DNA of 64,000 nucleotides from Roseibacillus sp. (GCA_022448985.1 JAKVCR010000001.1:4217-68216), one strand, 5' to 3'; positions 9,944 to 47,521 are shown, counted from the stretch's first letter. The notes: generated by a model not told the origin, from the sequence alone. Made by a program: numbers and translations.

Positions 9944-11089
9944 ATGGCCCAGAAGCTCTATTTCGTGGCTGGAGAACACAGCGGCGATACCCGCGGAGCT
10001 GAATTGATGGAGTCGCTCCGGGCGGTGCGGCCCGATTGGCAATTTTATGGTCTGGGGGGCCCAAAAATGCGGGAGCTGGCAGGTTCAGGCCTCGTTGACT
10101 GGGTGGCGGATGCTGCCGTGGTGGGTTTCTGGGAGGTCCTCAAGCGTTACTCGTGGTTCAAGGGCCGCTTTGATGCGACCCGTCGGGAAATTGAACAGCT
10201 CCGCCCGGATGCAGTGATCTTCGTTGATTATCCTGGCTTCAACCTGCGCCTGGCCCGGTCGCTGCACGAGGGCCTGTTACCTGCGCGGTTGATCAATTAC
10301 ATCAGCCCCCAGGTCTGGGCCTGGAACCGGGGACGGATCCATCGCATGGCAGACTGGATCGATCTGATGCTCTGCCTCTTCCCGTTTGAGGAGGAGATGT
10401 TTGAGAGCGCTGGTCTGCCTACCGTCTGCATTGGCCATCCCATTGTGGACGAGCTTGAAGCTGGACGTATCGAGGGCCGGAGGGAGGAGAATCTGGTGGG
10501 GCTCTTTCCCGGGAGCCGTGAGCGAGAGGTTTCGCGACATTTCCCCACCATGCTTGAGGTGGCCGCGCAATTGCATGAAAAATTTCCCGACTGGCGGTTT
10601 GAAGTGTCGGCCGCTTCACAGCTTCTGGAGGACCAGATGCGCGCCATCGTGAGGGATCACCCGGCGCAGCAACTGCCCCTCGTCATTGTACAGGGGCGTA
10701 GTCACGAGTTGATGCAGCGCGCCTGGAGCGGGGTGGTGACCAGCGGGACGGCGACCCTGGAGGCTTCCTACTATGGTTTGCCTTATTGCCTCGTTTATAA
10801 GGTGGCCTGGCCGACTTACCTGGTCGGACGTGTGTTGGTCGATATCGAGCACCTGGGGATAGCCAATATTCTGGCTGGCCGCGAAATCGTACATGAATTC
10901 ATCCAGCATGAGGCTAACGTAGAAAATATCTCCTCCTTTCTTGAGAGCGTAATGACCGATGAGCTGCGACGTGCGGAACTGGTGCGTAACTTGCTGGATG
11001 CGGCAGCCAAGCTGGGTGGCGGGGGAGCAGCGGAGGTTGCTGCCCAGGCTATTGTAGACCTTTTAGAAGGACAGAGCGATGGGGACTGA
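9944..11089 (+). CDS. lpxB: lipid-A-disaccharide synthase
   Basis: MAQKLYFVAGEHSGD... is the typical LpxB N-terminus, and the length and internal motifs fit. I chose ATG 9944; the ORF track starts upstream. Confidence 0.9.
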   Translation: MAQKLYFVAGEHSGDTRGAELMESLRAVRPDWQFYGLGGPKMRELAGSGLVDWVADAAVVGFWEVLKRYSWFKGRFDATRREIEQLRPDAVIFVDYPGFNLRLARSLHEGLLPARLINYISPQVWAWNRGRIHRMADWIDLMLCLFPFEEEMFESAGLPTVCIGHPIVDELEAGRIEGRREENLVGLFPGSREREVSRHFPTMLEVAAQLHEKFPDWRFEVSAASQLLEDQMRAIVRDHPAQQLPLVIVQGRSHELMQRAWSGVVTSGTATLEASYYGLPYCLVYKVAWPTYLVGRVLVDIEHLGIANILAGREIVHEFIQHEANVENISSFLESVMTDELRRAELVRNLLDAAAKLGGGGAAEVAAQAIVDLLEGQSDGD

Positions 11090-11822
11090 CTACGGGGACG
11101 GAATTCCCGAAGAACCATCCAGGCCGAACCCGGCTTGGAAGATTGCGATGGTGGGTGCGCCCATCTTCCTTCTTCTCTCCACCGGGTGGGCCCTTTGGAT
11201 CTGGTGGAAGAAATCGCAGGATGACTCAATTGATCCGCGTCTGGCGCTGGCCTCTGTCGCTGCCGAGGTGGAGGAACTGGAGGACACTTTGCACAAGCTC
11301 TCCAAGGTTCTCGGACCCCGTGATTGGAAGTCGGTGGAGGGGCGCAGTAACATGCGTCGGGCCATTGCTCTCATCGACGGGACTCTCAGCCCCCGCAACT
11401 ACGGGTTTGCAGTAGAGATGGGGGAATATCTGTCTTGCGCTGGCGAGCGGTGGCCTACGGTCTGGGTCGATCTGGCCGGAGTGAGCGATCCGATGCGGAT
11501 AGTGTTCGTCAACGCAGCCTATGACCAGAGTGATGCGTCAGTCACCCTGGCCCTTGCGGTAGCGCGGGATCTGCGGGACGAGGAATTTGGCCCTACCATC
11601 CGGTTCGTGTTCCATCCTTCGCAGCTCTACCGCGAACAGGCCGAGGAGAAGTTGCTCATCGACATTCTGGGCGAGAATGAGGCACACAGCGCTACCCTTG
11701 TCCCCGAGCTCCCCGGAGAGAGCTCCGGGCCTGAGGAGCGGAGATCGTGGAACGGGGCACAACTCAAGCCGCTGGCTGACGCCTTTGCTCAGCGAGTGCG
11801 GAAGAGTGCAAGTGCACGCTGA
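11079..11822 (+). CDS. hypothetical membrane-anchored protein (weak M28-peptidase-like core)
   Basis: One TM helix (MVGAPIFLLLSTGWALWIWW). It overlaps the lpxB stop by 11 nt. The family assignment is weak. Confidence 0.45.
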   Translation: MGTDYGDGIPEEPSRPNPAWKIAMVGAPIFLLLSTGWALWIWWKKSQDDSIDPRLALASVAAEVEELEDTLHKLSKVLGPRDWKSVEGRSNMRRAIALIDGTLSPRNYGFAVEMGEYLSCAGERWPTVWVDLAGVSDPMRIVFVNAAYDQSDASVTLALAVARDLRDEEFGPTIRFVFHPSQLYREQAEEKLLIDILGENEAHSATLVPELPGESSGPEERRSWNGAQLKPLADAFAQRVRKSASAR

Positions 11823-11900
11823 TGGCGAACCCGGTGACTGAAAAATACCTTGATGCGGGGGAGGTCCCCGCGTATTTCTCGCGCCCCGAGGACTGATTGA

Positions 11901-13843: not shown

Positions 13844-14305
13844 CTATCTGTGATACCTGCGGACTTCGAATTCCGGGTATTTTTCGACTAATTCGTAGCT
13901 GGGAAACTGATCGTCGAATTCCGGGAAGAGGGTATCTCCTTCATGTCTCTCGTGGACCCATGAGACGAGCAGTTCATCAAGGTGAGGGAGGAAAAGAGCG
14001 TAGATTTCTGCACCTCCCATGATGAAGACGGAAGGACTCTGGAGACGGAGGGAGCCGAGTTCGTCGGGAGAGTGGATCACCTCTACTCCCTCTGCCGACC
14101 ACGAGTGGTCACGGGTGAGCACGATGTTCTGCCGGTTCGGAAGGGCCCTGCCGATCGAGTCGAAGGTCTTGCGCCCCATCACCACCGGGTGGCCGCTGGT
14201 GGTTCGTTTGAAAAACCTCAGATCCTCCGGGAAGTGCCAGGGAAGCTTGTTGTCGCGGCCGATGATCCGCTCCGGAGTCATCGCTACGATAGCGGTGAGG
14301 GTCAT
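13844..14305 (-). CDS. folA: dihydrofolate reductase
   Basis: IVAM..IG.DN.LPW....DL..FK..T.G..VVMGRKT..SIG..LP.R.NIVLTR pattern. There is a 4-nt overlap with thyA. Confidence 0.9.
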
Positions 14306-37221: not shown

Positions 37222-37526
37222 GAGGTCGTAATACAGGTTTCGGGAAGAGGAAAACAGCCTGATTATAGGGTCTGCAGGTCCGATACGGATCAAACCCCGC
37301 GGATTTTACGGGGTTGTGGCAAAGAAACTGCCACAGATCGGTTAAGCGGTGGGGGCTGTTGGTGAGCTCGGAAGGGTCTTTACGGTGGGGTTTCCAGCTA
37401 ATCTTCACCTGCAGGCTCAGCGTGTGAGGCGCTGGCAGGTGTGATGGCTGAGGTGGCCCTTGTCCTGAAAAGAAGTTCGGATTCCCCGTGACAATTGTTC
37501 TTCTGAACAGTATCGGTTTAATCAGG

Positions 37527-39062
37527 ATGATTACGAAACTGCACAGTGCTGCTCTCCAGGGAGTGGAAGCGGTCGAAGTGGAAGTGGAAGTCAACTCCCC
37601 GGGGACCGGAACGCCCCGCATGGTGATTGTGGGGTTGCCTGATGCTGCGGTCCGGGAGTCCGCCGAGCGCGTCAGTTCTGCGGTCCATGCCTCCGCCCTT
37701 CCCAAGGACGATGGAGTGATTACGATCAACCTGGCACCTGCCGACCTGAAAAAGGAGGGGCCTTCCTTCGATTTGCCGATTGCCCTCGCGGTAGTGGCTT
37801 GCGCTCAGAAAAGCCGCCTCGATGGCGCCGATGATTGTCAGATCCTGGGGGAACTGGCGCTCGATGGTTCGGTTCGTCCCGTGAAGGGGGTTCTTTCGGC
37901 AGCGATCGAGGCGAAGGCGCGGGGCAAGAGACGCCTGCTGGTTCCGGAACAGAATGCAAGGGAAGCGGCAGCAGTCGACGGTATTGAAGTTTTCGGAGTG
38001 CGCGGACTCCGGCAGGCCTGGGATTTTCTCAATGGGGAGGAGGCGCTGGCTCCGGCCCGGGCGATCGGGTTGAACGGATCCGGGGAGCGATCGTATCCGG
38101 TGGATCTCGAGGAAGTGAAAGGCCAGCCGCACGTGAAACGAGCTTTCGAGGTTGCGGCGGCAGGGTCTCACAACATGCTCATGGCGGGCCCACCGGGGAC
38201 GGGGAAGTCAATGCTGGCAAAGCGCTTGCCGACGATCCTGCCGGACATGACCAGAGGGGAAGCAATCGAGACGACCCGGGTGTATTCCATTTCCGGGATT
38301 CTTGACTCGGGGGCAGGGCTGCTCCGCGCCCGGCCGTTCCGCAGCCCACACCACACGATTTCGAATGCGGGACTGCTGGGAGGAGGAAGCAATCCGGGGC
38401 CGGGAGAGATTTCGCTGGCGCACAATGGAGTGCTTTTCCTCGATGAGTTGCCCGAATTCCGGCGCCAGACCCTGGAGGTCCTGCGGCAGCCTCTCGAGGA
38501 TGGGCAGGTAACCATCTCCCGAGCCGCTGGAACCCTCACGTTCCCGAGCAAGGTGCTCCTGGTCGGTTCGCTCAATCCCTGTCCCTGCGGATATTTCGCG
38601 GACCCGCTCCGGGATTGTTCCTGCTCGCCGCGCCAGGTGGAACATTACCGGCAGAAGATTTCCGGGCCACTCCTGGATCGCATTGACCTGCACGTAGAAG
38701 TGCCGCTCATAGATTTCAAGCAGCTCTCTTCCCCGGAGCGGACTGAAAATTCGGCATCGGTGCGGGAACGAGTCGAGAAATGCCGGGCCCGGCAGGAAGA
38801 CCGGTTCAAGGATGTTGCGGGAGTGCGGGTCAATTCCGACATGAAGCCGAGGCAGGTTCGTCAGTATTGCGAACTCGATCGAGAATCCTCGAACCTGATG
38901 GAGCAGGCCATGGAGCAACTGAACTTCTCGGCCCGGGCCTATGATCGGATCCTGAAAGTGGCCCGGACGGTCGCAGACCTGGACGGTTCAGAGGTGCTCC
39001 GGACAACCCACCTGCTGGAAGCGATCCAGTACCGGAGCCTCGATCGCAAGTTGATGCACTAG
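37527..39062 (+). CDS. comM: YifB/ComM-family Mg-chelatase-like AAA+ ATPase
   Basis: Lon-protease-like N-domain, Walker [10 protein letters not shown], Walker [10 protein letters not shown], and a zinc-ribbon-like CPCGY...CSC. I chose ATG 37527. Confidence 0.9.
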
Positions 39063-39073
39063 CGCGAATCCTG
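38909..39073 (+). repeat. direct repeat copy A (3' end of comM + 11 nt downstream)
   Basis: Aligns without gaps to 41947-42111, with 16 mismatches out of 165 by hand alignment. Confidence 0.9.
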
Positions 39074-39919
39074 TTAGTCCGCTCCACGCTTTGGAGAGGG
39101 AGGGACTTTGAGGCTGGGAAAGAACTCCGGGCGGTATTCAAAGTGCATCAGATCGTAGTGATACCACTTCCCACCCCAGATAAATCCGTGCTTCTCAAAG
39201 ATCCTAACAATCTTCCCGGGGTAGGCCAGACGGCGTTTCATGTCTCCGAGGCGATCCTGATCACGTTCCCACTTCCAGTAGGCGCCCAGGGATGGGTTGA
39301 GATCGATCGCGATTCCAAAGGAGTGCGAACTCAGCCGCTGTGTGCCAGCTATCTTTCGCCAGTTAAATGTTCCGCCCATCTCTTGGAAGTACTTCCGCAA
39401 TTGCGGCTCGGTCTGGAGCAGGATCGCCACTTCCTTCCCCACTTCCCTGAGCGCTTCGGCAGCACCATTACGGCTTTGGAAGCGAATCGATTTGTCCAGG
39501 AACTTGATCGTTACCAGACCCTTTTCGACCTCGGGTTTCGTGTCGCCATAAACCTCTTTGAGAAGAGCGTCGTTACGATAGCGACCAGGATCCAGGTTCC
39601 TGGGCCAAGCCTCGAAATCCAAGTTTGAGGGGTAGGCTTGGTGAAGGATGTCGAGCAAGCTCGGAGCGGCTACGCGGTCAGCATGCGAACGCTGCTTCTC
39701 GTAGCGCAGGATCTCCTCACCTCCGTTGCGAAGTCTTGCGCGGAGCACACCCTGCTGGTCCTTGAGCACCTTGCCTATCGCACCGGGGTAGGCTGCGCGA
39801 AGACTTACGAGGGCTTTGGAGGCACCTGGATCGAACGATTGTCCCTCACAAACAAGTAGTAAGACGACGCACGCCACGACCAGCGGCGAAAACATGTTGA
39901 GAAGAGTTCTGGAATTCAC
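39074..39919 (-). CDS. M15-family zinc D,D-/L,D-peptidase (VanY-like) with signal peptide
   Basis: SSHSFGIAIDLN (H..D zinc ligands) and GFIWGGKW...DLMHFEY (the second His) are typical of peptidase M15. GTG start at 39919. Confidence 0.78.
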   Translation of the reverse strand: MNSRTLLNMFSPLVVACVVLLLVCEGQSFDPGASKALVSLRAAYPGAIGKVLKDQQGVLRARLRNGGEEILRYEKQRSHADRVAAPSLLDILHQAYPSNLDFEAWPRNLDPGRYRNDALLKEVYGDTKPEVEKGLVTIKFLDKSIRFQSRNGAAEALREVGKEVAILLQTEPQLRKYFQEMGGTFNWRKIAGTQRLSSHSFGIAIDLNPSLGAYWKWERDQDRLGDMKRRLAYPGKIVRIFEKHGFIWGGKWYHYDLMHFEYRPEFFPSLKVPPSPKRGAD

Positions 39920-39930
39920 TTTTCTTTCAG

Positions 39931-40917
39931 GTGAGTTTCAACCTTTCTTCCTTGGATTTGAATCTATTATTTCTGCGGAGATCCGCGAGGATCGGCGTGC
40001 TGCAACTCGTGGTCCTTTGTCCCATGGTTCTCAGCAACTGTTCTCCCGAGACCGAAGCGGATCAATACCGAATCTGGATTGGGGGGGACTTTCACTTCGG
40101 CGAAGGGCGCTCCGCCGTGCTGGAGCCGCTTTCTCACCTCCTTCAGGGTGCGATTGGTTTCGTGAACCTGGAAGGGCCCCTTCATGGGGGGAAGGAAACG
40201 CACGTGGATGATTCAGGCAGAGTGTGGCTGTTCAATTCGCCGCGCCCCTTACCGCAGCAACTGGCCGCACTCAATATCCAGGCCGTCGGGACTGCCAACA
40301 ACCATCAGCACGATGCGGGGAGCTCCGGAGTTCACGAAACGGAGCGGCATCTGAAGCAGGCTGGAATTCTATCGGTTGGGGGCAGTTCGCCCATCAGGCT
40401 GTTGAAACTTCCGAGTCTCGATATTGTGTTGACTGTACATGATCTCACGGACGGGATTACTCCCACCCTCTCGGCGGAGCTCCAGAGCGCCAGGAAGCGG
40501 GGCGATATTCTCATCAGCACATTCCATGTCACAGGCCCGCCGAGCTATCTGCCCTCACCCCAACTTCGCAAAGCTGTTGAAATCGCTCTCGAGGCAGGGG
40601 CCTCGGTGATTGCCTCTCATGGCAGCCATGCCCCTGGACCGGTAGAACGTCGCGGTGATACTGTCATTGCCTGGGGATTGGGAAACCTGGCCTTCAACTG
40701 CAAGTGTACGGACGAGAAGGATGGGCTCGTTCTGGCCCTCCTTCTCAACTCCCGGAATAGTGGGGAGCGAATCGCAGAAGCGGGTGTCGTCCCAATCGAT
40801 GCGGGGCTTCGCGGCAATCCTTCCAAGCCTGCCCGCAATCCGGAACTGATCTTCGATCTTCTGGAAGCGATCGGGAGTAGCGAGTTGAGACGCCAGGGAC
40901 AGCGGGCCTCGTTTTGA
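39931..40917 (+). CDS. CapA-family metallophosphoesterase-like protein (poly-gamma-glutamate CapA/PgsA-like)
   Basis: IWIGGDFHFGEG, VNLEGPL, GTANNH..D.G and ..SHGSHA.. follow the CapA-family metallophosphatase motif order. GTG start with a lipobox-like VLSNC. Confidence 0.7.
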   Translation: MSFNLSSLDLNLLFLRRSARIGVLQLVVLCPMVLSNCSPETEADQYRIWIGGDFHFGEGRSAVLEPLSHLLQGAIGFVNLEGPLHGGKETHVDDSGRVWLFNSPRPLPQQLAALNIQAVGTANNHQHDAGSSGVHETERHLKQAGILSVGGSSPIRLLKLPSLDIVLTVHDLTDGITPTLSAELQSARKRGDILISTFHVTGPPSYLPSPQLRKAVEIALEAGASVIASHGSHAPGPVERRGDTVIAWGLGNLAFNCKCTDEKDGLVLALLLNSRNSGERIAEAGVVPIDAGLRGNPSKPARNPELIFDLLEAIGSSELRRQGQRASF

Positions 40918-40968
40918 TCGATGAGAGACGGTGGAATGACACCCGCACGGGGCGTCGAATCGATCCTA

Positions 40969-41802
40969 TCAGGCCTCGCCGAACCAATTGAGGTGGTCTG
41001 CCTCAGAGAGCGGACCGCCAATGGACTGTTCGACGCTCATGATGAGCTTGAGATTCTTTTGATCAACTTCGGTAAGCTGGGAATCCTGGAAGTTCTTGTC
41101 CACCTTGTACCAATCCTGTCGCGCGAAATACTGCTTCAGGGAGTCCGACTTAAAGGCCCGGCCGTGGCGAGCGTAAATCGTGTTGCGCAGGAGGCGTAGG
41201 TCTCGCCGGGAATAATCCCCGAGATGTATCACCTTGAGGATCCGATCGAAACTCTTTGGATCGAATGGATCCACCCACGTCTTTCCGACATCTTGTCCTT
41301 GCTGCTTCTGCCAATAGCTGTGGTATCCTGCGGGCACGCTTCTTCCCAAGGCGCGAGAAATCAATCCGAGTTCCAACCACTGCGTCTTGGTGATTTGCTT
41401 CTGCTTCAATAAATTCAGGAGATTTGCTTCAGTCGCTTGCAGCTCCTTGCGGGAGATGCCCACCTCAAACTCCGCGACAAAGGCCGCGTTCTCCCGATCG
41501 CGTTTGGACACCTTGCTCATGTCCAGGCCAGTTGGTTCATACCAGGCAAACTGTGCGAAGTAGTCGTTCAACCACTGCTTTCGAAACTTGTTCCCAGCCC
41601 GGGCAAAGATGGCATTCCGAACCAGAGACAGCTCTCTCAGCGTCTTGTCTTTCAGATCAGCCTCCCTGATTTTGCGATCGAAGTAGTAAGGATTCTCAAC
41701 CCTGTCTCCTTTCTCCTGTGCGGGGGCCTCCAGGACCGTGAATCCGCCCACCAGCGCAAGAGCCACGGAACCCCCAAGCATGATACGACTCATCATTCTC
41801 AT
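40969..41802 (-). CDS. secreted protein with two YARHG domains
   Basis: Signal peptide, then L.LVRNAIFARAGNKF....L..YF....WY and L.LLRNTIYARHGRAFKSDSLKQYFARQDWY. The second carries the literal YARHG motif. Confidence 0.8.
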   Translation of the reverse strand: MRMMSRIMLGGSVALALVGGFTVLEAPAQEKGDRVENPYYFDRKIREADLKDKTLRELSLVRNAIFARAGNKFRKQWLNDYFAQFAWYEPTGLDMSKVSKRDRENAAFVAEFEVGISRKELQATEANLLNLLKQKQITKTQWLELGLISRALGRSVPAGYHSYWQKQQGQDVGKTWVDPFDPKSFDRILKVIHLGDYSRRDLRLLRNTIYARHGRAFKSDSLKQYFARQDWYKVDKNFQDSQLTEVDQKNLKLIMSVEQSIGGPLSEADHLNWFGEA

Positions 41803-41947
41803 GTCCTCACCCTAGGGAAATTCGGATTGGTTGCAAACTCGGGGTTCTGACCACGAGAATCTCCTCCCGCGCAGTGATGTGGCCCGGAAACCTCGCAAAG
41901 AGCAGGTCCATCCGGAGGGCTGGCAATCGCAGCTTCATCCTTCGAAC

Positions 41948-42100
41948 ATGGAGCAACTGAGCTTCTCGGCCCGGGCCTATGATCGGATCCTGAAGGTGGC
42001 CCGGACGGTCGCAGACCTGGACGATTCAGGCGTGCTCCGTGCAACCCGCCTGATGGAAGCGATCCAGTACCGGAGTTTCGATCGTAAGTTGATGCGTTAG
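41948..42100 (+). pseudogene. headless duplicate of the comM 3' end (repeat copy B spans 41947-42111)
   Basis: [50 protein letters not shown] compared with the comM C-terminus [50 protein letters not shown]. There is no ATPase body upstream. Confidence 0.85.
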
Positions 42101-42132
42101 TACGAATCCTGGCCCCCCCCAACCAAACCCAA

Positions 42133-42816
42133 TCAATCGCGTTTTTCCGCGAGATAGATCCGATGTCGTTTCTGTTTGGCCCGGGGGTGCTTCGCAACCG
42201 CGAGTTCCTCGACCGTGAATCCGGTCTGTCGCAGATCGCGCAGGAGCCCGGGTTCTGCGGTCGCGGCCCAAAAGGCGACCCGGCCTCCGGATGTGAGCGC
42301 GCGTTTGATGGTCTGCAAACCCTCCCGGCGATAGATCCGGGCGTTTCCTGGTTGCAGGAGTGATGAGGGGCCGTCGTCAACATCGAGAAGGATGGCGTCA
42401 TAGGGCGACGCCTTCTTTGCGGCCGCCTTGATTAGCGGGTAAACGTCTCCCTCGATGACTTGCGTTCTTTGATCTGCAAGAATCCCGTCGTTTAGACCAG
42501 CGAGACACTCCCTGTTCCACACGATGATCTCAGGCAGCAACTCCGCCACTTCGATGCGTGCATCGCTCCCGCCAAGCTCCAGGCAACGGCGGAGGCTGAA
42601 ACCAAGCCCAAGGCCACCGATCAGGATCCTGGGGTTCTTGCGGCCATCACGAAAATCGCATCCGAGATCGGCAAGCAGCAATTCGGAGTGCGTCATGGTG
42701 GTGCTCATAACCTGCCGCTCGTTCATGTAGAGAAAGAACTCGCCGTCATGCGAACAGAGGCGGAACGTCGCCCCATCGGGAGCCACTGTCTCAGCAACAT
42801 TGATGGTTGGCTTCAT
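42133..42816 (-). CDS. spermidine-synthase-fold SAM-dependent methyltransferase-like protein
   Basis: ILIGGLGLGFSLRR.LE.....IEVAEL.PEI..W and ..YDAILLDVDDGP.. resemble short spermine/spermidine-synthase-like proteins. Confidence 0.7.
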   Translation of the reverse strand: MKPTINVAETVAPDGATFRLCSHDGEFFLYMNERQVMSTTMTHSELLLADLGCDFRDGRKNPRILIGGLGLGFSLRRCLELGGSDARIEVAELLPEIIVWNRECLAGLNDGILADQRTQVIEGDVYPLIKAAAKKASPYDAILLDVDDGPSSLLQPGNARIYRREGLQTIKRALTSGGRVAFWAATAEPGLLRDLRQTGFTVEELAVAKHPRAKQKRHRIYLAEKRD

Positions 42817-42907
42817 GAATTGAGGGTGGGGTGTCCCTGTAATTCAGGGGTATGAAAAATGGCCGGGGATCTCTCCAAATCGGTTCATCCCCGAACCATC
42901 ACGTCGG

Positions 42908-45900
42908 TCAATTCTCCCGCACCCGGACCCGCATGTATTTTTTGTCAAGGCCGCTGCCTATGGCGTTGAGCTGGGTATAGGTGTAATTGGACGAAGCGGT
43001 GCCGGCAATTCCATCGGGTCCATCGCTTGCTGCTATCACAAGTGCGGTGATGTCCACCCATGGGTCCTCAGCGCCCAGGTCATCGCTGCCCTCAATGGCG
43101 AAGGTGATATTCGGCGGCAGGGAATCTGCCCGTCGGAGATGCAGAACCAATTGGTCCGAACCACTGACAGACGCGGATGGCAGCAGTGCAGATGCATCAT
43201 GGGTGTCCGGGCGCATCCCCGGCGAGGCGTGGGAATAGGCGTATTCGAAGAGGTTTGCGACCCCATCCCCGTCAGAATCGTCAGTCGATGCGGAAAGAGC
43301 ACCGATCCCGGGGAAGGTGGCAATCCAGCTGTCAAATGAAATGGGACCGGCTTCAGTGCTGGTGGTGAGAAGATCCGGAGCATTGTTGTAATCAATCGCG
43401 TAGCCCGTGTTTGAGTAGGGTATGATGACAAAGTAGTAAGTGGTGTCGGTAGTGGACAAGCCACTGAAGGTCCGGGTCTGTATTTCCGCCGGGACGTAGA
43501 CCCGTGTGAAACCATCGCTCAGATCGCCGTCTGGAAGAAACTGCTCTCCATCCGAGGGAATCACGAAGTCATTGCTGGTGCTTCCCAGGATGAGATAGCC
43601 ATAAGGCGCGATTTCTCCCGTAGCGTCGGTCCAGTTGAGGCGGATGCCGGTGGGACTGGTGGCCGTGGCGGTAAAATCGGTGGGATGCCCGGTGGGCTGT
43701 TCCAGGATCTTGAACCAGTTCCTGCTTTCCAGGGTCGGGACGTCGGTCGGGAAGCCGGCCGGGAAGATGGTCGTGTCGTCGTACCATTTGGGTCCTGTGT
43801 CGTTCAGGTGGGCGAGATTGCTGGCCGTGATATGGCCGGGATCGGGGTCTCCATTTGAAGCCTTACCGTTTGGATCCGTAAAATCGACGCCCGCCCAGTT
43901 GGTGTCGACCGCCTCGGATTGACTGTTGAACAGGTTGGCATTGTTGTTGGTGGTGTTATGACCCCGCATTTCAAACACGCAGTCCGCAAAATTCCAGCCC
44001 GTCATTTTCAGAGCTTTCACCGGTGAGGTCAGTTTCCCTCCAAAGTGGGCGGTCCCCGAAAGGAAGAACTGCACGCCGGCGAAGTTCGCTCTCTTACCCA
44101 GGGTCTCCCGGAAGGCCTCGCTTTTCTTGGCGGTGATGATGGCATTACTGAAGTCGGTTTCATTCAGATTGGCGCGGAAAAACAAGCGGTAGCCGCCCTT
44201 GATCACGCAGTCGCTGAAGTCGGAATGCTGGCACTTCAGATTTGCGAATGAGAATTCAGTCAGGTTTTCGCCCAGCAACTCCAGGCCCGAGAAACTCACG
44301 CCATTCGCATTGACATGGCGCATGAACCCGTTCCTCGACCAGGTGATCTTGGTAAACGGCCTGCTGAAGGTCTGCCCCTCGATGCTGAAATCCCGGTCGG
44401 TCAGGTCAGAGGTCTTGCTGGCGATGGTGGTATGCCCGAATTTGACATTATCGAGGGTGGTGCCCTCCTGGACGTAGTCGATCACCTCGTCCGGATTGAT
44501 ATTTCCGCCGCTGGCCGCGACATTGTAGACCCGGTTGTCCCTGAGGAGCTTGCCGGTAAAGACGGGAGGGTGCTCCATCGTTTCAGGGGGAGCCGGGAGC
44601 GTCTTGTAGTCAATCAGGGATCCGCCATTGGTGTAGGAATAAATCCGGAAGTAGTAGTCGATCCCACCAGGCAGGCGGTTGAACCGGTAGGCTTGTGATC
44701 CGGCCGGCAGATATACAAGAGCCGATCCGTCCCGGAGGTTCGTATCCTCGGGAGGGGAAACGCCGTCGACCGGGTCGGTGAAGATATTGGTTGTATTGGC
44801 GATGATCAGGTAGCCGAAGGCCGACACCGCGCCCGTTGCGTCGGTCCAGGACAGGTCGATGGTCTCGGCGAGTGAAGAAGCGGTGAACGAGGTGGCATGA
44901 CCAGAAGGCTCAACAGTCACCTGGAACCAGTTCTTGGTCGCCAGGGTGGTGGCATCAGTGGGGAATCCCACCGGGAAGACGGTCGTCGCGGTGTCATAGA
45001 ATTTAGGGCCGGTCCCGTCCAACAGATCCAGCTCGGCGGCGAGGAAATCGGGGTCCGACATGTCGGCTCCGATCCAGTTGGAGTTGGCGGCGGTCGTTGT
45101 ATCGCCAAACAGGGTTGTTCCGGGAGCCAGAGAAAAACTGGCGCCGGAGAAGTTCCACCCGTTCATCTTGGATCCGGCGAAGTGGTCCGATCCCGAGAGA
45201 TGGAATGCTGTCCCGGCAAAGGTGGCATTCTTGCCCGAGGCGCTGTTGAAGCTGTTCGCCCCGACTGTGATGGTGGCGTAACTGAAATCAGCATTGGCCA
45301 GGGAAGTGCTCCGGAAGGCCCCCGTGGAGGTTCCTCCATCCAGAACGAGACCCGAGAAGTTCGAGTTGCTGGCATTGACACTCCGCATGAAGGAGGGTGT
45401 CGACCAGGCGAACCCGGAGAGGGGTTCGCTGAAACCGGTGGTGAAATCCCTGTTCCGGAGATTGGAAACGACTTCCTCATTGTCGCTGCCAAACTGGGCA
45501 TCGGAAAGGACCCCGTCGGGGTCGATATGATCCATGGGAGCTCCAGCGGTGATCACGATCCCGTTTCCGAGGGTGTAATCGAGGCCATCGGCCAGCAGGA
45601 TGCCGGAGGGGGTTGTCGCTGAATCCACCGGCGCGGCGGGCACCGTCTTGAAATCAATATTCACCCCGGTGTTTGAGTAGGGATAAATTGCGAAGTGGTA
45701 AGGGGTCGTCCCGGTCAGGCCCCTGAATTGATGGGACTGAAGGCCCTGCCGGACATAAACCACCGCCTCGCCGTCGCTCAGGTCGGGGTCCATCTCAGGG
45801 GCACTCAGGTCGACCGGACCAGGGAAGCCCGGCGTTGTGCTGGCAAAGAGGACGTAGCCATAGGGCGGGTCCGCTCCCCCGGCATCGGTCCATGACAGGT

Positions 45901-47293
45901 TGACGATTTCATTGCTGGGAGCGAAGGCCGTGAAATTGTCCACGTGCGCGGTGGGCTCAGGCATGCCAAAAACGTCCAGAACCGTGATTTCCTGGCTCAG
46001 GGTCACGGTTCCACCACGCAGGTCGAGGACGTCAACTGACACGGAGTCCGGGCCGGGCAGCTCCCAGGTGTGGGTGAGACTCAGGGCATTGTCCTCAAAG
46101 ACCTCCGGGTGATTCCCGGTGGTCCAGACGCCGACACAGGAATCTCCATCCGCGTCCGTGGGAGTGACCGTGATTGTCACGGGAGTGCCAGCCGGAACTG
46201 CCAATGGGGCGTCCCAGGTGGCGGTCGGAGCGATGTTGGTCTGGTGTCCTCCCCGGATCACCGCGACATCCATGTATTTATTGGGAAGGGTGCCGCCCGT
46301 TCCAAGGTTGGTGATGAAGAGATCCCCTCCTCCATCGTGCAGCGTCTCATAGGGTGGGAGGTGCGCGTTGTCGAGTGCTCCGCCGGGCTTGTAATCGCAC
46401 AGGAGAGAGGGATCGGTGTTTCGCTGGTAGTAAATCTGCAAGCCCTTCTGCAGCCCGTAGTTCTTGCCGGGACTGCTGAACTTGTTGAGGAGCTTGGAGC
46501 GGTATTGAAGCCAGACCCACTGCTTGGACTGTCCCTTGCGGTCCACCCGGATGCAGCGCTTCCGGCCTGCGCCGACGTTCTTCTGGTCGATGTTATAAAG
46601 GCGATCCATGTAGACCCCGTCACGGGTATGATTAAATCGCGTGTTGTTGGTGATCCAGTTGGCCATGTGGGCCTCCCGCGCCTTGGGGGACACTCCGGCC
46701 CTCTTCATGAAAGAGTAGGTATCGCCCTTCTTGCCAACCCCGGGAATTCCGATCGGATTGCTGATGGTGTTTCTCCTGACCCAGTGATACGGGTGATCAA
46801 ATCCCAGGTTGTGACCCATTTCATGCTCCGTGGCGCCCAGCGACTTCACCCAGAAGCGCCTGCCTCCCTTGGTGGCCAGGCCTCCCCAGCCGAACTTGGT
46901 CCCGGTGAAGAAGATCCCCACATGACGGTAGGGCCCCGGGACGGTGGCGAAGCCACTCCTGTTTACCGCCTGTTCCGCGGCCGCCGCCAAGGACCCGGCT
47001 GTTTTATACCATCCCGCATTGTGGGGCATGGTGTAGACCCTGGGCGTGACGGTAACAATGAGGTTGTACTTTCCGTACGAATACCTGTCAAAATTGCGCT
47101 TCACCGCCTGCAGCTTGTTGGTCACCGCATCGAAACTGTGAGTTGATCGGTGGTCGGGAAAGTTGATGCGGATCGCGAGCACTTTCTGATTGCCGGTCGT
47201 ATTTGGCACGCCCATGACAATTTGTGATGAGGAAATCAGTGCCGAGGCTGCAAGAAGGCAGCGGAGAACCAGCGTCTTATTTGGTGGAGTCAT
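42908..47293 (-). CDS. giant secreted metzincin-type zinc metalloprotease with 3 FN3-like modules, 2 pentapeptide-repeat-like beta-helix modules and a Ca-loop C-terminal module
   Basis: Signal peptide from ATG 47293. The zinc signature is HEMGHNLGFDH (about 46793-46828). See the findings for the repeat architecture. The C-terminus has DDSDGDGVANLFEYAY and ends in KKYMRVRVREN. Confidence 0.8.
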   Translation of the reverse strand: MTPPNKTLVLRCLLAASALISSSQIVMGVPNTTGNQKVLAIRINFPDHRSTHSFDAVTNKLQAVKRNFDRYSYGKYNLIVTVTPRVYTMPHNAGWYKTAGSLAAAAEQAVNRSGFATVPGPYRHVGIFFTGTKFGWGGLATKGGRRFWVKSLGATEHEMGHNLGFDHPYHWVRRNTISNPIGIPGVGKKGDTYSFMKRAGVSPKAREAHMANWITNNTRFNHTRDGVYMDRLYNIDQKNVGAGRKRCIRVDRKGQSKQWVWLQYRSKLLNKFSSPGKNYGLQKGLQIYYQRNTDPSLLCDYKPGGALDNAHLPPYETLHDGGGDLFITNLGTGGTLPNKYMDVAVIRGGHQTNIAPTATWDAPLAVPAGTPVTITVTPTDADGDSCVGVWTTGNHPEVFEDNALSLTHTWELPGPDSVSVDVLDLRGGTVTLSQEITVLDVFGMPEPTAHVDNFTAFAPSNEIVNLSWTDAGGADPPYGYVLFASTTPGFPGPVDLSAPEMDPDLSDGEAVVYVRQGLQSHQFRGLTGTTPYHFAIYPYSNTGVNIDFKTVPAAPVDSATTPSGILLADGLDYTLGNGIVITAGAPMDHIDPDGVLSDAQFGSDNEEVVSNLRNRDFTTGFSEPLSGFAWSTPSFMRSVNASNSNFSGLVLDGGTSTGAFRSTSLANADFSYATITVGANSFNSASGKNATFAGTAFHLSGSDHFAGSKMNGWNFSGASFSLAPGTTLFGDTTTAANSNWIGADMSDPDFLAAELDLLDGTGPKFYDTATTVFPVGFPTDATTLATKNWFQVTVEPSGHATSFTASSLAETIDLSWTDATGAVSAFGYLIIANTTNIFTDPVDGVSPPEDTNLRDGSALVYLPAGSQAYRFNRLPGGIDYYFRIYSYTNGGSLIDYKTLPAPPETMEHPPVFTGKLLRDNRVYNVAASGGNINPDEVIDYVQEGTTLDNVKFGHTTIASKTSDLTDRDFSIEGQTFSRPFTKITWSRNGFMRHVNANGVSFSGLELLGENLTEFSFANLKCQHSDFSDCVIKGGYRLFFRANLNETDFSNAIITAKKSEAFRETLGKRANFAGVQFFLSGTAHFGGKLTSPVKALKMTGWNFADCVFEMRGHNTTNNNANLFNSQSEAVDTNWAGVDFTDPNGKASNGDPDPGHITASNLAHLNDTGPKWYDDTTIFPAGFPTDVPTLESRNWFKILEQPTGHPTDFTATATSPTGIRLNWTDATGEIAPYGYLILGSTSNDFVIPSDGEQFLPDGDLSDGFTRVYVPAEIQTRTFSGLSTTDTTYYFVIIPYSNTGYAIDYNNAPDLLTTSTEAGPISFDSWIATFPGIGALSASTDDSDGDGVANLFEYAYSHASPGMRPDTHDASALLPSASVSGSDQLVLHLRRADSLPPNITFAIEGSDDLGAEDPWVDITALVIAASDGPDGIAGTASSNYTYTQLNAIGSGLDKKYMRVRVREN

Positions 47294-47521
47294 GATGGGT
47301 TGGGGGGTGCAGGAAATAACCGGCTGGACCAATAAGGCTCAAGGGGAACTGTGACGATTCCCGGGGGGCTCCGTCAAGGCGCAAGGAAGCACCCAAGCCA
47401 CTGGCAGCTCGTGGCCCTGTTCCCCGGTTCACCGGGACCGATTGCCCGGCCAGGGGTCGGCAGGGAGGTCCCGTGTTCTCTGTCGGGTTCGGGCCCTGCA
47501 GGATTCTATGATGCGGGCGGG

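Follow-up and report, generated by a model that had tools for sequence, protein, structure and literature searches.

How can a set of accessory genes that carries no recombinase come to lie between two copies of the end of another gene, and is such a set still able to move? This question is raised by the comM locus of Roseibacillus sp. (GCA_022448985.1, JAKVCR010000001.1:4217-68216), of which we analyzed a stretch of 64,000 nucleotides, hereafter the window; coordinates are counted from its first letter. In the window, an intact comM gene (37527-39062, + strand) is followed by an interval of 2873 bp, hereafter cassette A (39074-41946), with genes for an M15 peptidase, a CapA-like protein and a protein with two YARHG domains. 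Cassette A is enclosed by two copies of the comM 3′ end in the same orientation, R1 (38909-39073, + strand) and R2 (41947-42111, + strand). The original prediction, made from this sequence, read the arrangement as the scar of an integrative element that had brought its own replacement copy of the gene end. Our comparisons with related loci (designated by L numbers) agree with an accessory, mobile insertion. However, they speak against an own replacement gene end, since neither repeat travels with the cassette. Judged from these comparisons, cassette A is a live mobile unit which is actively exchanged, and not a dead scar.

The Two Copies of the comM 3′ End

R1 consists of the last 50 codons of comM, the stop codon and 11 nt. 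As had been predicted, R1 and R2 form one gap-free direct repeat of 165 nt with 16 mismatches (90.3% identity), an alignment recovered with MAFFT, a repeat finder and BLAST; the repeat search found no third copy within the 64-kb window. R2 is indeed a headless, in-frame fragment: it matches Pfam PF13335 (Mg_chelatase_C), is still readable as an ATG open reading frame (ORF) of 50 codons (41948-42100), and was annotated by gene callers as a 50-aa Mg_chelatase_C ORF in L172, L184 and L194. Its amino acids are identical to those of R1 at 42 of 50 positions. The differences between the copies are spread 4/6/6 over the three codon positions (two boundary-codon mismatches just upstream of the repeat being counted in), with 9 non-synonymous and 4 synonymous changes. 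R2 also carries N5S, H34R and L44F, where the first 40 ComM homologues have almost all N or G, H, and L, respectively. Because the changes fall at all three codon positions, are mostly non-synonymous and include substitutions at conserved ComM residues, R2 is a decaying pseudogene piece. Its source was a comM allele of the same species group rather than that of a distant organism.

Two parts of the repeat are of particular use for what follows. The first is a 22-nt block coding for EAIQYR that is identical in both copies (39016-39037 in R1, 42054-42075 in R2, + strand). The second is CGAATCCTG, the final 9 nt of R1 (39065-39073, + strand), which is found again at the end of R2 (42103-42111). 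Also, strains with 99.4% identity to the window have an R1 that departs from the window's in one patch, and 3 sites of this patch agree with R2, a pattern that fits conversion between the repeat copies.

A diversity-generating retroelement, with a variable repeat at the gene 3′ end and a template copy, was considered and rejected: the mismatches are not adenine-specific (adenines occupy 3 of the 16 mismatched positions in R2 and 6 in R1) and no reverse-transcriptase domain was detected.

A short sequence resembling part of the repeat was also observed inside the cassette. GATCGGATCCTCAAGGTG (DRILKV), located in frame within the YARHG gene at 41230-41247 (- strand), is a 17/18 match, in inverted orientation, to the DRILKV-coding stretch of R1 and R2. 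About 0.18 matches of this type, with at most 3 mismatches, are expected by chance in the window, and a coincidence is possible.

Exchange of the Cassette Between Lineages

Scanning GTDB representatives and JGI metagenomes for ComM homologues returned none above 65% identity and no synteny; the contigs of close relatives came solely via a protein index, which gave a ComM series graded from 99 to 66%. One of these relatives, L172, stems from sample ERZ23498628. Between the window and L172, nucleotide identity was 84.4% for comM, 87.9% for R1 and 84.6% for R2, vs. 97.5% for the M15 gene, 98.8% for the CapA-like gene and 97.4% for the YARHG gene. The non-coding stretch that closes cassette A on the right (41803-41946), upstream of the YARHG gene, was 97.2% identical and therefore moves with the cassette. 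The switch from host-like to cassette-like divergence occurs within about 15 nt of each repeat edge, and the junction positions are the same in both lineages. A second cassette, B, showed a similar pattern, being 98.8% identical between L172 and L161 while their comM genes are 85% identical. Also, the M15 homologues formed a single tight cluster at 93% identity or more and then fell to 51% or less, while ComM was graded from 99 to 66%.

On these identities, the cassette moves as a unit, with neither repeat copy traveling along and both following the host lineage. A comM 3′ end supplied by the element itself was rejected on the same comparison, with R1 at 88% and R2 at 85% against 97-99% for the cassette; no attachment-site (att) arm borne by an element was seen to travel between the two hosts. 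One-sided homology-facilitated illegitimate recombination, from a donor with a native comM-cassette order, was likewise rejected, R1 not being donor-type and none of 160 comM loci having the M15, CapA and YARHG genes downstream of comM.

The repeats of L172 deserve attention in themselves. There, the 153 coding nucleotides show no difference between R1 and R2, and both copies are of L172 type. After the stop codon, the dinucleotide beside the cassette is CG, as in the window, and that in R2 is TG, as in the cassette-free locus L161. This pattern is what a host-templated duplication of the target would leave. According to that explanation, about 150 nt would be copied from the recipient's own comM at each integration, by double-strand-gap repair or template switching. 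The cassette would carry a few comM nucleotides at each end in an "ends-in" arrangement (the post-stop CGCGAATCCTG on the left, ...C ATGGAGCAAC on the right), and every new host would thereby gain two copies of its own comM end. The L172-type copies around a window-like cassette, the linkage of CG to the left cassette end in both lineages together with the native TG retained in R2, and the identical junction positions all agree with it. However, the supporting pattern comes from one lineage, L172, and full-length gene conversion or a donor closely related to L172 explains it equally well. In the lineage of the window, the divergence of R2 from R1 amounts to 10% and R2 is stable from strain to strain; it is thus not a fresh copy. 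To our knowledge, no bacterial system produces target duplications of about 150 nt. We therefore consider this explanation improbable.

A Junction Made Between the Repeats

Exact look-up of the M15 protein retrieved L194, a metagenome contig of 2999 bp (sample ENA ERZ23495239 / SAMN25282958) which is a circular permutation of a 3038-bp unit. It contains, in this order, window positions 40907-41946 (YARHG side), a single repeat, and 39074-40865 (M15/CapA side). The repeat is a hybrid, with R2-only alleles at 38992-3, 39010 and 39015, and R1 alleles at 39038-9, 39047, 39058-9 and 39063-4. The switch from R2 on the left to R1 on the right is located inside the 22-nt identity block, 25-46 nt upstream of the end of the stop codon. 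This junction is exactly what one expects from a homologous R1 × R2 crossover, whether the product is an excised circle or a tandem duplicate. A hybrid repeat which joins the insert ends, with the crossover in a stretch of identity, is what repeat-mediated loop-out produces. A circle or tandem junction, of the kind that the original prediction proposed to look for, exists in a public assembly. The CapA gene of L194 is frameshifted.

Variation of the Site Among Relatives

Four arrangements were found that share the flanks of the window (93-99% identical; about 85% in L172). The order comM, cassette A, R2, 227-aa gene is that of the window, L170 (99.4% nucleotide identity), L171 (95%) and L184. 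In L172, whose comM is just 84% identical to that of the window at the nucleotide level, the order is comM, cassette A, R2, cassette B, the two cassettes being stacked in tandem. The loci L161 to L166, with flanks 93-94% identical, have an insert of 1677 bp between comM and the 227-aa gene, and the second comM fragment is absent. In L161, homology to the window ends exactly at 39073 and restarts at 42113, and the insert consists of a 334-nt stretch, X, followed by cassette B with a PolX-like gene. Finally, L167 is a near-empty site, with about 105 nt between comM and the 227-aa gene. Relatives with flanks 93-98% identical thus hold other content or, in the case of L167, almost none. By these comparisons, the interval is an accessory, mobile insertion at a strain-variable hot spot linked to comM.

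Cassette A, in the window and L172, and the different insert of L161 start directly after CGAATCCTG. The motif CGAATC, which follows the comM stop codon within CGAATCCTG, is also present at the junction of R2 with cassette B and at that of X with cassette B. TTCGAA occurs within 30 nt of three cassette ends; both end motifs, TTCGAA and CGAATC, are too short to test. The left end of cassette B (L161 11878-11905, L172 5772-5800) reads CGAATCTT CGAATTCT CGAATCGC, that is, three CGAATC units in an 8-nt register.

Further variation was observed around the site. In L161, a direct repeat of 133 nt (11698-11829 and 13992-14124, 91% identity) corresponds to the 3′ end of a neighboring gene on the opposite strand, which encodes a 1474-aa surface protein. 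This repeat brackets the 227-aa methyltransferase-like gene and the PolX-like gene of cassette B, and suggests that comM and the 1474-aa gene were formerly directly convergent. The architecture of repeated gene ends is thus not exclusive to comM. L167 contains an 86-nt piece of the comM interior (10248-10333, equivalent to window 38595-38680, 81%) bordering a CvfB/S1-like gene; this gene is an insertion between the 227-aa and 1474-aa genes, and the stray piece lies at another strain-specific junction. L173 (11599-12959) and L174 (6061-6068), whose ComM proteins are identical, differ by a single-gene insertion of 1361 bp (GFO_IDH_MocA oxidoreductase) situated 59 nt past the comM stop codon, with an 8-nt junction overlap and no comM repeat; their upstream flanks are also unlike, with a Y1 (IS200-type) transposase gene in L173. 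In L178 (11678-15387; ComM 77% identical), the interval from comM to ferritin holds two other genes, of PSCyt1/PSD type and HXXSHH, while the outer synteny is kept (PSCyt2/PSD1 upstream, ferritin and GDSL lipase downstream). As the interval is replaced in L178, the variable region reaches beyond the cassette.

An old, fixed local duplication or rearrangement, with no present mobility and with variants that are merely deletions in some strains, would fit the pseudogene-type substitutions in R2. Small microhomology insertions and stray gene fragments are common near the locus as well (L173/L174, L167). However, lineages with 15% divergence in their flanks share a cassette of 97-99% identity, and its boundaries are sharp. 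A different cassette occupies the same point in L161, the M15 gene is without homologues of intermediate divergence, and L194 holds a circle or tandem junction with a hybrid repeat. Had all relatives been alike, the original prediction would have given way to this explanation; the four arrangements contradict such uniformity, and we regard an inert, old duplication as very improbable.

Recombinase Searches

The absence of a recombinase between the repeats, also claimed from the sequence, was upheld. No recombinase was found with Pfam, PADLOC and NCBIfam in the ORFs of cassettes A or B, or in the cassette ORFs of six other comM-end cases described below. Among the two largest ORFs (230-520 aa) of each locus within 5 kb downstream of about 75 comM genes (n = 138), Pfam gave no recombinase family with two or more members, the level at which families were listed. 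When XerD and resolvase seeds were compared with 4851 ORFs, just five housekeeping XerD genes were obtained, all upstream of comM. No tyrosine or serine recombinase was thus detected by these seeds downstream of comM in 160 loci (flanks sampled over 10 kb), and none in the window. The home-made XerD profile became too narrow for sensitive detection of integrases, and it is backed by the Pfam scan of the 138 ORFs. No relatives of the M15 or PolX-like genes were found on viral contigs.

Recurrence at Other comM Ends

Direct repeats of the comM 3′ end (38-393 nt) around unrelated, integrase-less cargo were found in six further lineages. The cargo consists of 8.3 kb with an ABC transporter and oxidoreductases in L001 (repeat of 122 nt, 93%), 5 kb with a cyclic-oligonucleotide-based antiphage signaling system (CBASS) in L177 (79 nt, 92%), two proteins without assigned function in L008, a 624-aa protein without assigned function in L118 (with two fragments), a PDC-S01 candidate defense ATPase in L132 (47 nt), and a prolyl oligopeptidase in L144 (38 nt).

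L177 (10001-18125) contains, in addition, a second full-length comM-like gene (511 aa), inverted and about 5 kb downstream of comM. Its CBASS genes (CD-NTase, E2-like, DUF6602) lie between the two comM-like genes, with pairs of helix-turn-helix and M78-peptidase genes on both sides.

The repeated use of one gene end bears on another explanation, in which an integrase acting in trans, encoded on an integrative and conjugative element (ICE), a phage or an island, targets comM, moves recombinase-less cassettes with their attL and attR sites, and stacks them in tandem. Its recognized core would lie in or just past the comM 3′ end. Such an enzyme would account for the use of the same gene end across many lineages, about 8-fold over other genes, for the start of two different inserts at one nucleotide after CGAATCCTG, for the tandem stacking in L172, and for the occurrence of CGAATC at the R2/B and X/B junctions and three times at the left end of cassette B. 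Also, elements with an integrase and with comM as their target have been described in Proteobacteria (PMC4774983), and decay followed by accretion is the textbook origin of cis-mobilizable elements (CIMEs) (PMC5704250). Against it, no integrase was found in or next to the inserts flanked by comM ends, nor among the 138 ORFs downstream of about 75 comM genes. The att copy that is expected to travel does not (85% for the left part of R2 vs. 98% for the cassette), the sole recombinant junction seen, that of L194, switches in mid-repeat and not at CGAATCCTG, and the lengths and end points of the repeats vary widely among lineages. We consider a trans-acting integrase possible, although on the unlikely side. 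If it exists, this locus supplies its att site and a natural set of substrates.

There is also a broader proposal, to which we give little weight: the comM 3′ end would be a widely used landing pad, independent of recombinases, to which cassettes home by short terminal matches, with 40-400 nt of the recipient's comM end being duplicated by gap repair or template switching. The cargo would be envelope genes here, and CBASS and other candidate defense genes elsewhere. If true, this would represent a distinct mode of gene-cassette mobility in several phyla, possibly tied to the processing of transforming DNA by ComM.

Proposed Mechanism

The explanation that we put forward, at even chances, is that general homologous recombination, acting through the repeated comM end, drives the gain, loss and amplification of the cassette. 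We favor homologous recombination because the crossover in L194 lies in the repeat interior, the repeats are of host type, their lengths are variable and no recombinases were found. A crossover between R1 and R2 would release a 3.04-kb circle, made of the cassette and one hybrid repeat, and leave an emptied site; the same crossover between sister chromosomes would give a tandem copy. A molecule with the cassette and one copy of the comM end could then integrate into a related strain through one Campbell-type crossover at the conserved comM 3′ end; the result would again be an intact comM followed by the cassette and a displaced, headless fragment. Subsequently, the repeat copies would be drawn towards the host sequence by gene conversion or gap repair. 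The dependence on RecA, the choice between circle and tandem, the route of transfer between cells and the mode of first capture are parts of this scheme that we infer.

Several observations weigh against recombination through the repeats, or can be read otherwise. Instead of a free circle, L194 could represent a tandem duplication or, less probably, a change of assembler path at the 22-nt identity, which common k-mer sizes make unlikely. Allelic exchange of comM, and not conversion by R2, could be the source of the mosaic R1 alleles. A plain single crossover should leave donor-type half-repeats, and none is visible in the coding part of L172; an extra step is therefore needed, such as conversion, gap repair or a closely related donor. 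The post-stop sequence of L167 differs, and the exact emptied site, with R1 on the left and R2 on the right, was not recovered among the relatives. General recombination also offers no explanation for the start of two unrelated inserts at the same base after CGAATCCTG. Furthermore, repeats of the 3′ end were found at 5 of about 130 comM genes vs. 4 of about 780 other long genes (odds ratio 7.8, p = 0.004; control of 912 long genes in the same loci, with one paralogue array removed), and general recombination gives no reason for this roughly 8-fold preference. The enrichment at comM, the shared start base and the presence of CGAATC at further junctions have something of the smell of site specificity.

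Comparison With Known Systems

On present evidence, the cassette would best be placed with CIMEs and pseudo-SCC-like elements, or with hot-spot cassettes driven by recombination, and not in a new category. As in a classical integrative element, direct repeats with the target-gene end and a restored target ORF are present; no integrase is. CIMEs are a recognized class of decayed, att-flanked remnants, and accretion of ICEs and of integrative and mobilizable elements at the 3′ end of target genes is described in Streptococcus (PMC5704250). The shared features are recombinase-less DNA in direct repeats that include a conserved gene 3′ end, an intact target gene and tandem stacking. Both att-type repeats are kept here and no recombination genes were found. 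Unlike in CIMEs, no cognate integrase-bearing element was seen at the site in the sampled genomes, the repeats follow the host, and the observed recombinant junction is inside the repeat.

Pseudo-SCC elements, located in staphylococci at the rlmH (orfX) 3′ end, are cassettes that resemble the staphylococcal cassette chromosome (SCC) but lack ccr genes. The repeats of SCC are short integration-site sequences (about 15-20 bp) cut by the Ccr serine recombinases. Cassette A resembles pseudo-SCC in that a small cargo without a recombinase lies within direct repeats behind a housekeeping gene, and in that content varies between strains, with tandem composites; it differs by repeats of 38-393 nt (over all comM cases) and by the lack of any detected Ccr-type recombinase. 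Campbell-type integration of non-replicating circles, as with suicide plasmids, and hot-spot turnover by homologous recombination, as in amplifiable units, offer a further comparison. As in such hot-spot turnover, a homologous segment is directly duplicated around the insert, loop-out circles and tandem amplification are expected, and no dedicated recombinase is involved, whereas the present locus shows an apparently repeated natural use of one gene end and discrete cassettes common to species-level lineages. In Prochlorococcus, tycheposon-associated cargo islands are reported to be flanked by partial tRNA copies (bioRxiv 10.1101/2020.12.28.424599). They are alike in having cargo arrays split by partial copies of a target-gene end, in streamlined aquatic bacteria, and some units without their own integrase. 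They are unlike the comM cassettes in that they target tRNA or tmRNA genes and that bona fide integrase-carrying elements occupy the same sites.

Mobile genetic elements that carry an integrase and interrupt comM are known in Proteobacteria (PMC4774983). These elements and the Tn7-like AbaR islands in comM are described as carrying their own integrase or Tns genes, interrupting comM and abolishing competence (PMC4774983; PMC11014353). The common point is comM as a landmark gene that recurs across distant taxa. Here, comM is intact, the insertion lies at or after the stop codon, and no mobility gene was found. The analogy with AbaR drawn from the sequence alone does not hold, as AbaR islands are Tn7-like transposons that interrupt comM with short duplications, whereas no tnsABC or tniQ genes were detected here with Pfam and the duplication is a direct one of 165 nt. 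An integron cassette is not a better match: the three genes are in mixed orientation, inverted repeats are absent from the cassette ends, and no tyrosine recombinase was detected in the window.

Genes of the Cassette and of the Flanks

The comM gene encodes a YifB/ComM Mg-chelatase-like AAA+ ATPase with the Pfam domains ChlI, Mg_chelatase and Mg_chelatase_C; its orthologues of 511 aa are 77-99% identical. The longest ORF spans 37488-39062 (524 aa), while the gene callers of relatives put the start at 37527. Between R1 and R2 there are exactly three genes, as claimed in the original prediction and found by Pfam and the gene calls of relatives: an M15_4 (VanY-like) metallopeptidase of 273 aa (39074-39895, - strand, PF13539), a PGA_cap/CapA-like protein of metallophosphoesterase fold of 306 aa (39997-40917, + strand, PF09587, with a gene call in L170), and a 277-aa protein with an N-terminal hydrophobic segment, read from its translation, and YARHG domains in two stretches (40969-41802, - strand, PF13308). 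No PADLOC defense-system match was obtained for the proteins of cassettes A or B. The coherent envelope-remodeling set that the original prediction saw in the three genes is a domain-level guess.

The suspected AT-richness of the interior is modest and true: its GC content is 55.9% against a mean of 59.5% (SD 1.2), no other 2.87-kb window of the 64 kb being lower, and its tetranucleotide deviation is in the top 2.3%.

To the right of R2, the 227-aa gene (42133-42816, - strand) encodes a protein of methyltransferase fold, with a weak spermidine-synthase-like NCBIfam match, and is placed as the right flank by synteny. It is followed by the gene of the 1474-aa surface protein (42908-47332, - strand), whose 3′ end with 22 nt (42886-43009) is the window equivalent of the L161 repeat. 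This gene contains an internal direct repeat of 107 nt (43668-43774 and 44880-44986, 70%), which probably reflects repeated Ig/fn3-like domains.

Meaning for Island Mobility

Most models of island mobility need a recombinase encoded by the element or by a helper, and the cassette studied here is without a linked one. It nevertheless crosses species-level boundaries (about 15% flank divergence) and was seen present, absent, replaced, stacked, and as a circle or tandem junction. Nor was a recombinase linked to at least six analogous inserts flanked by comM ends, among them the one with CBASS. Should the mobility device be the repeat itself, gene ends could serve as portable homology arms for accessory and defense genes in poorly studied phyla such as Verrucomicrobiota, and many annotated "decayed islands" may then be active.

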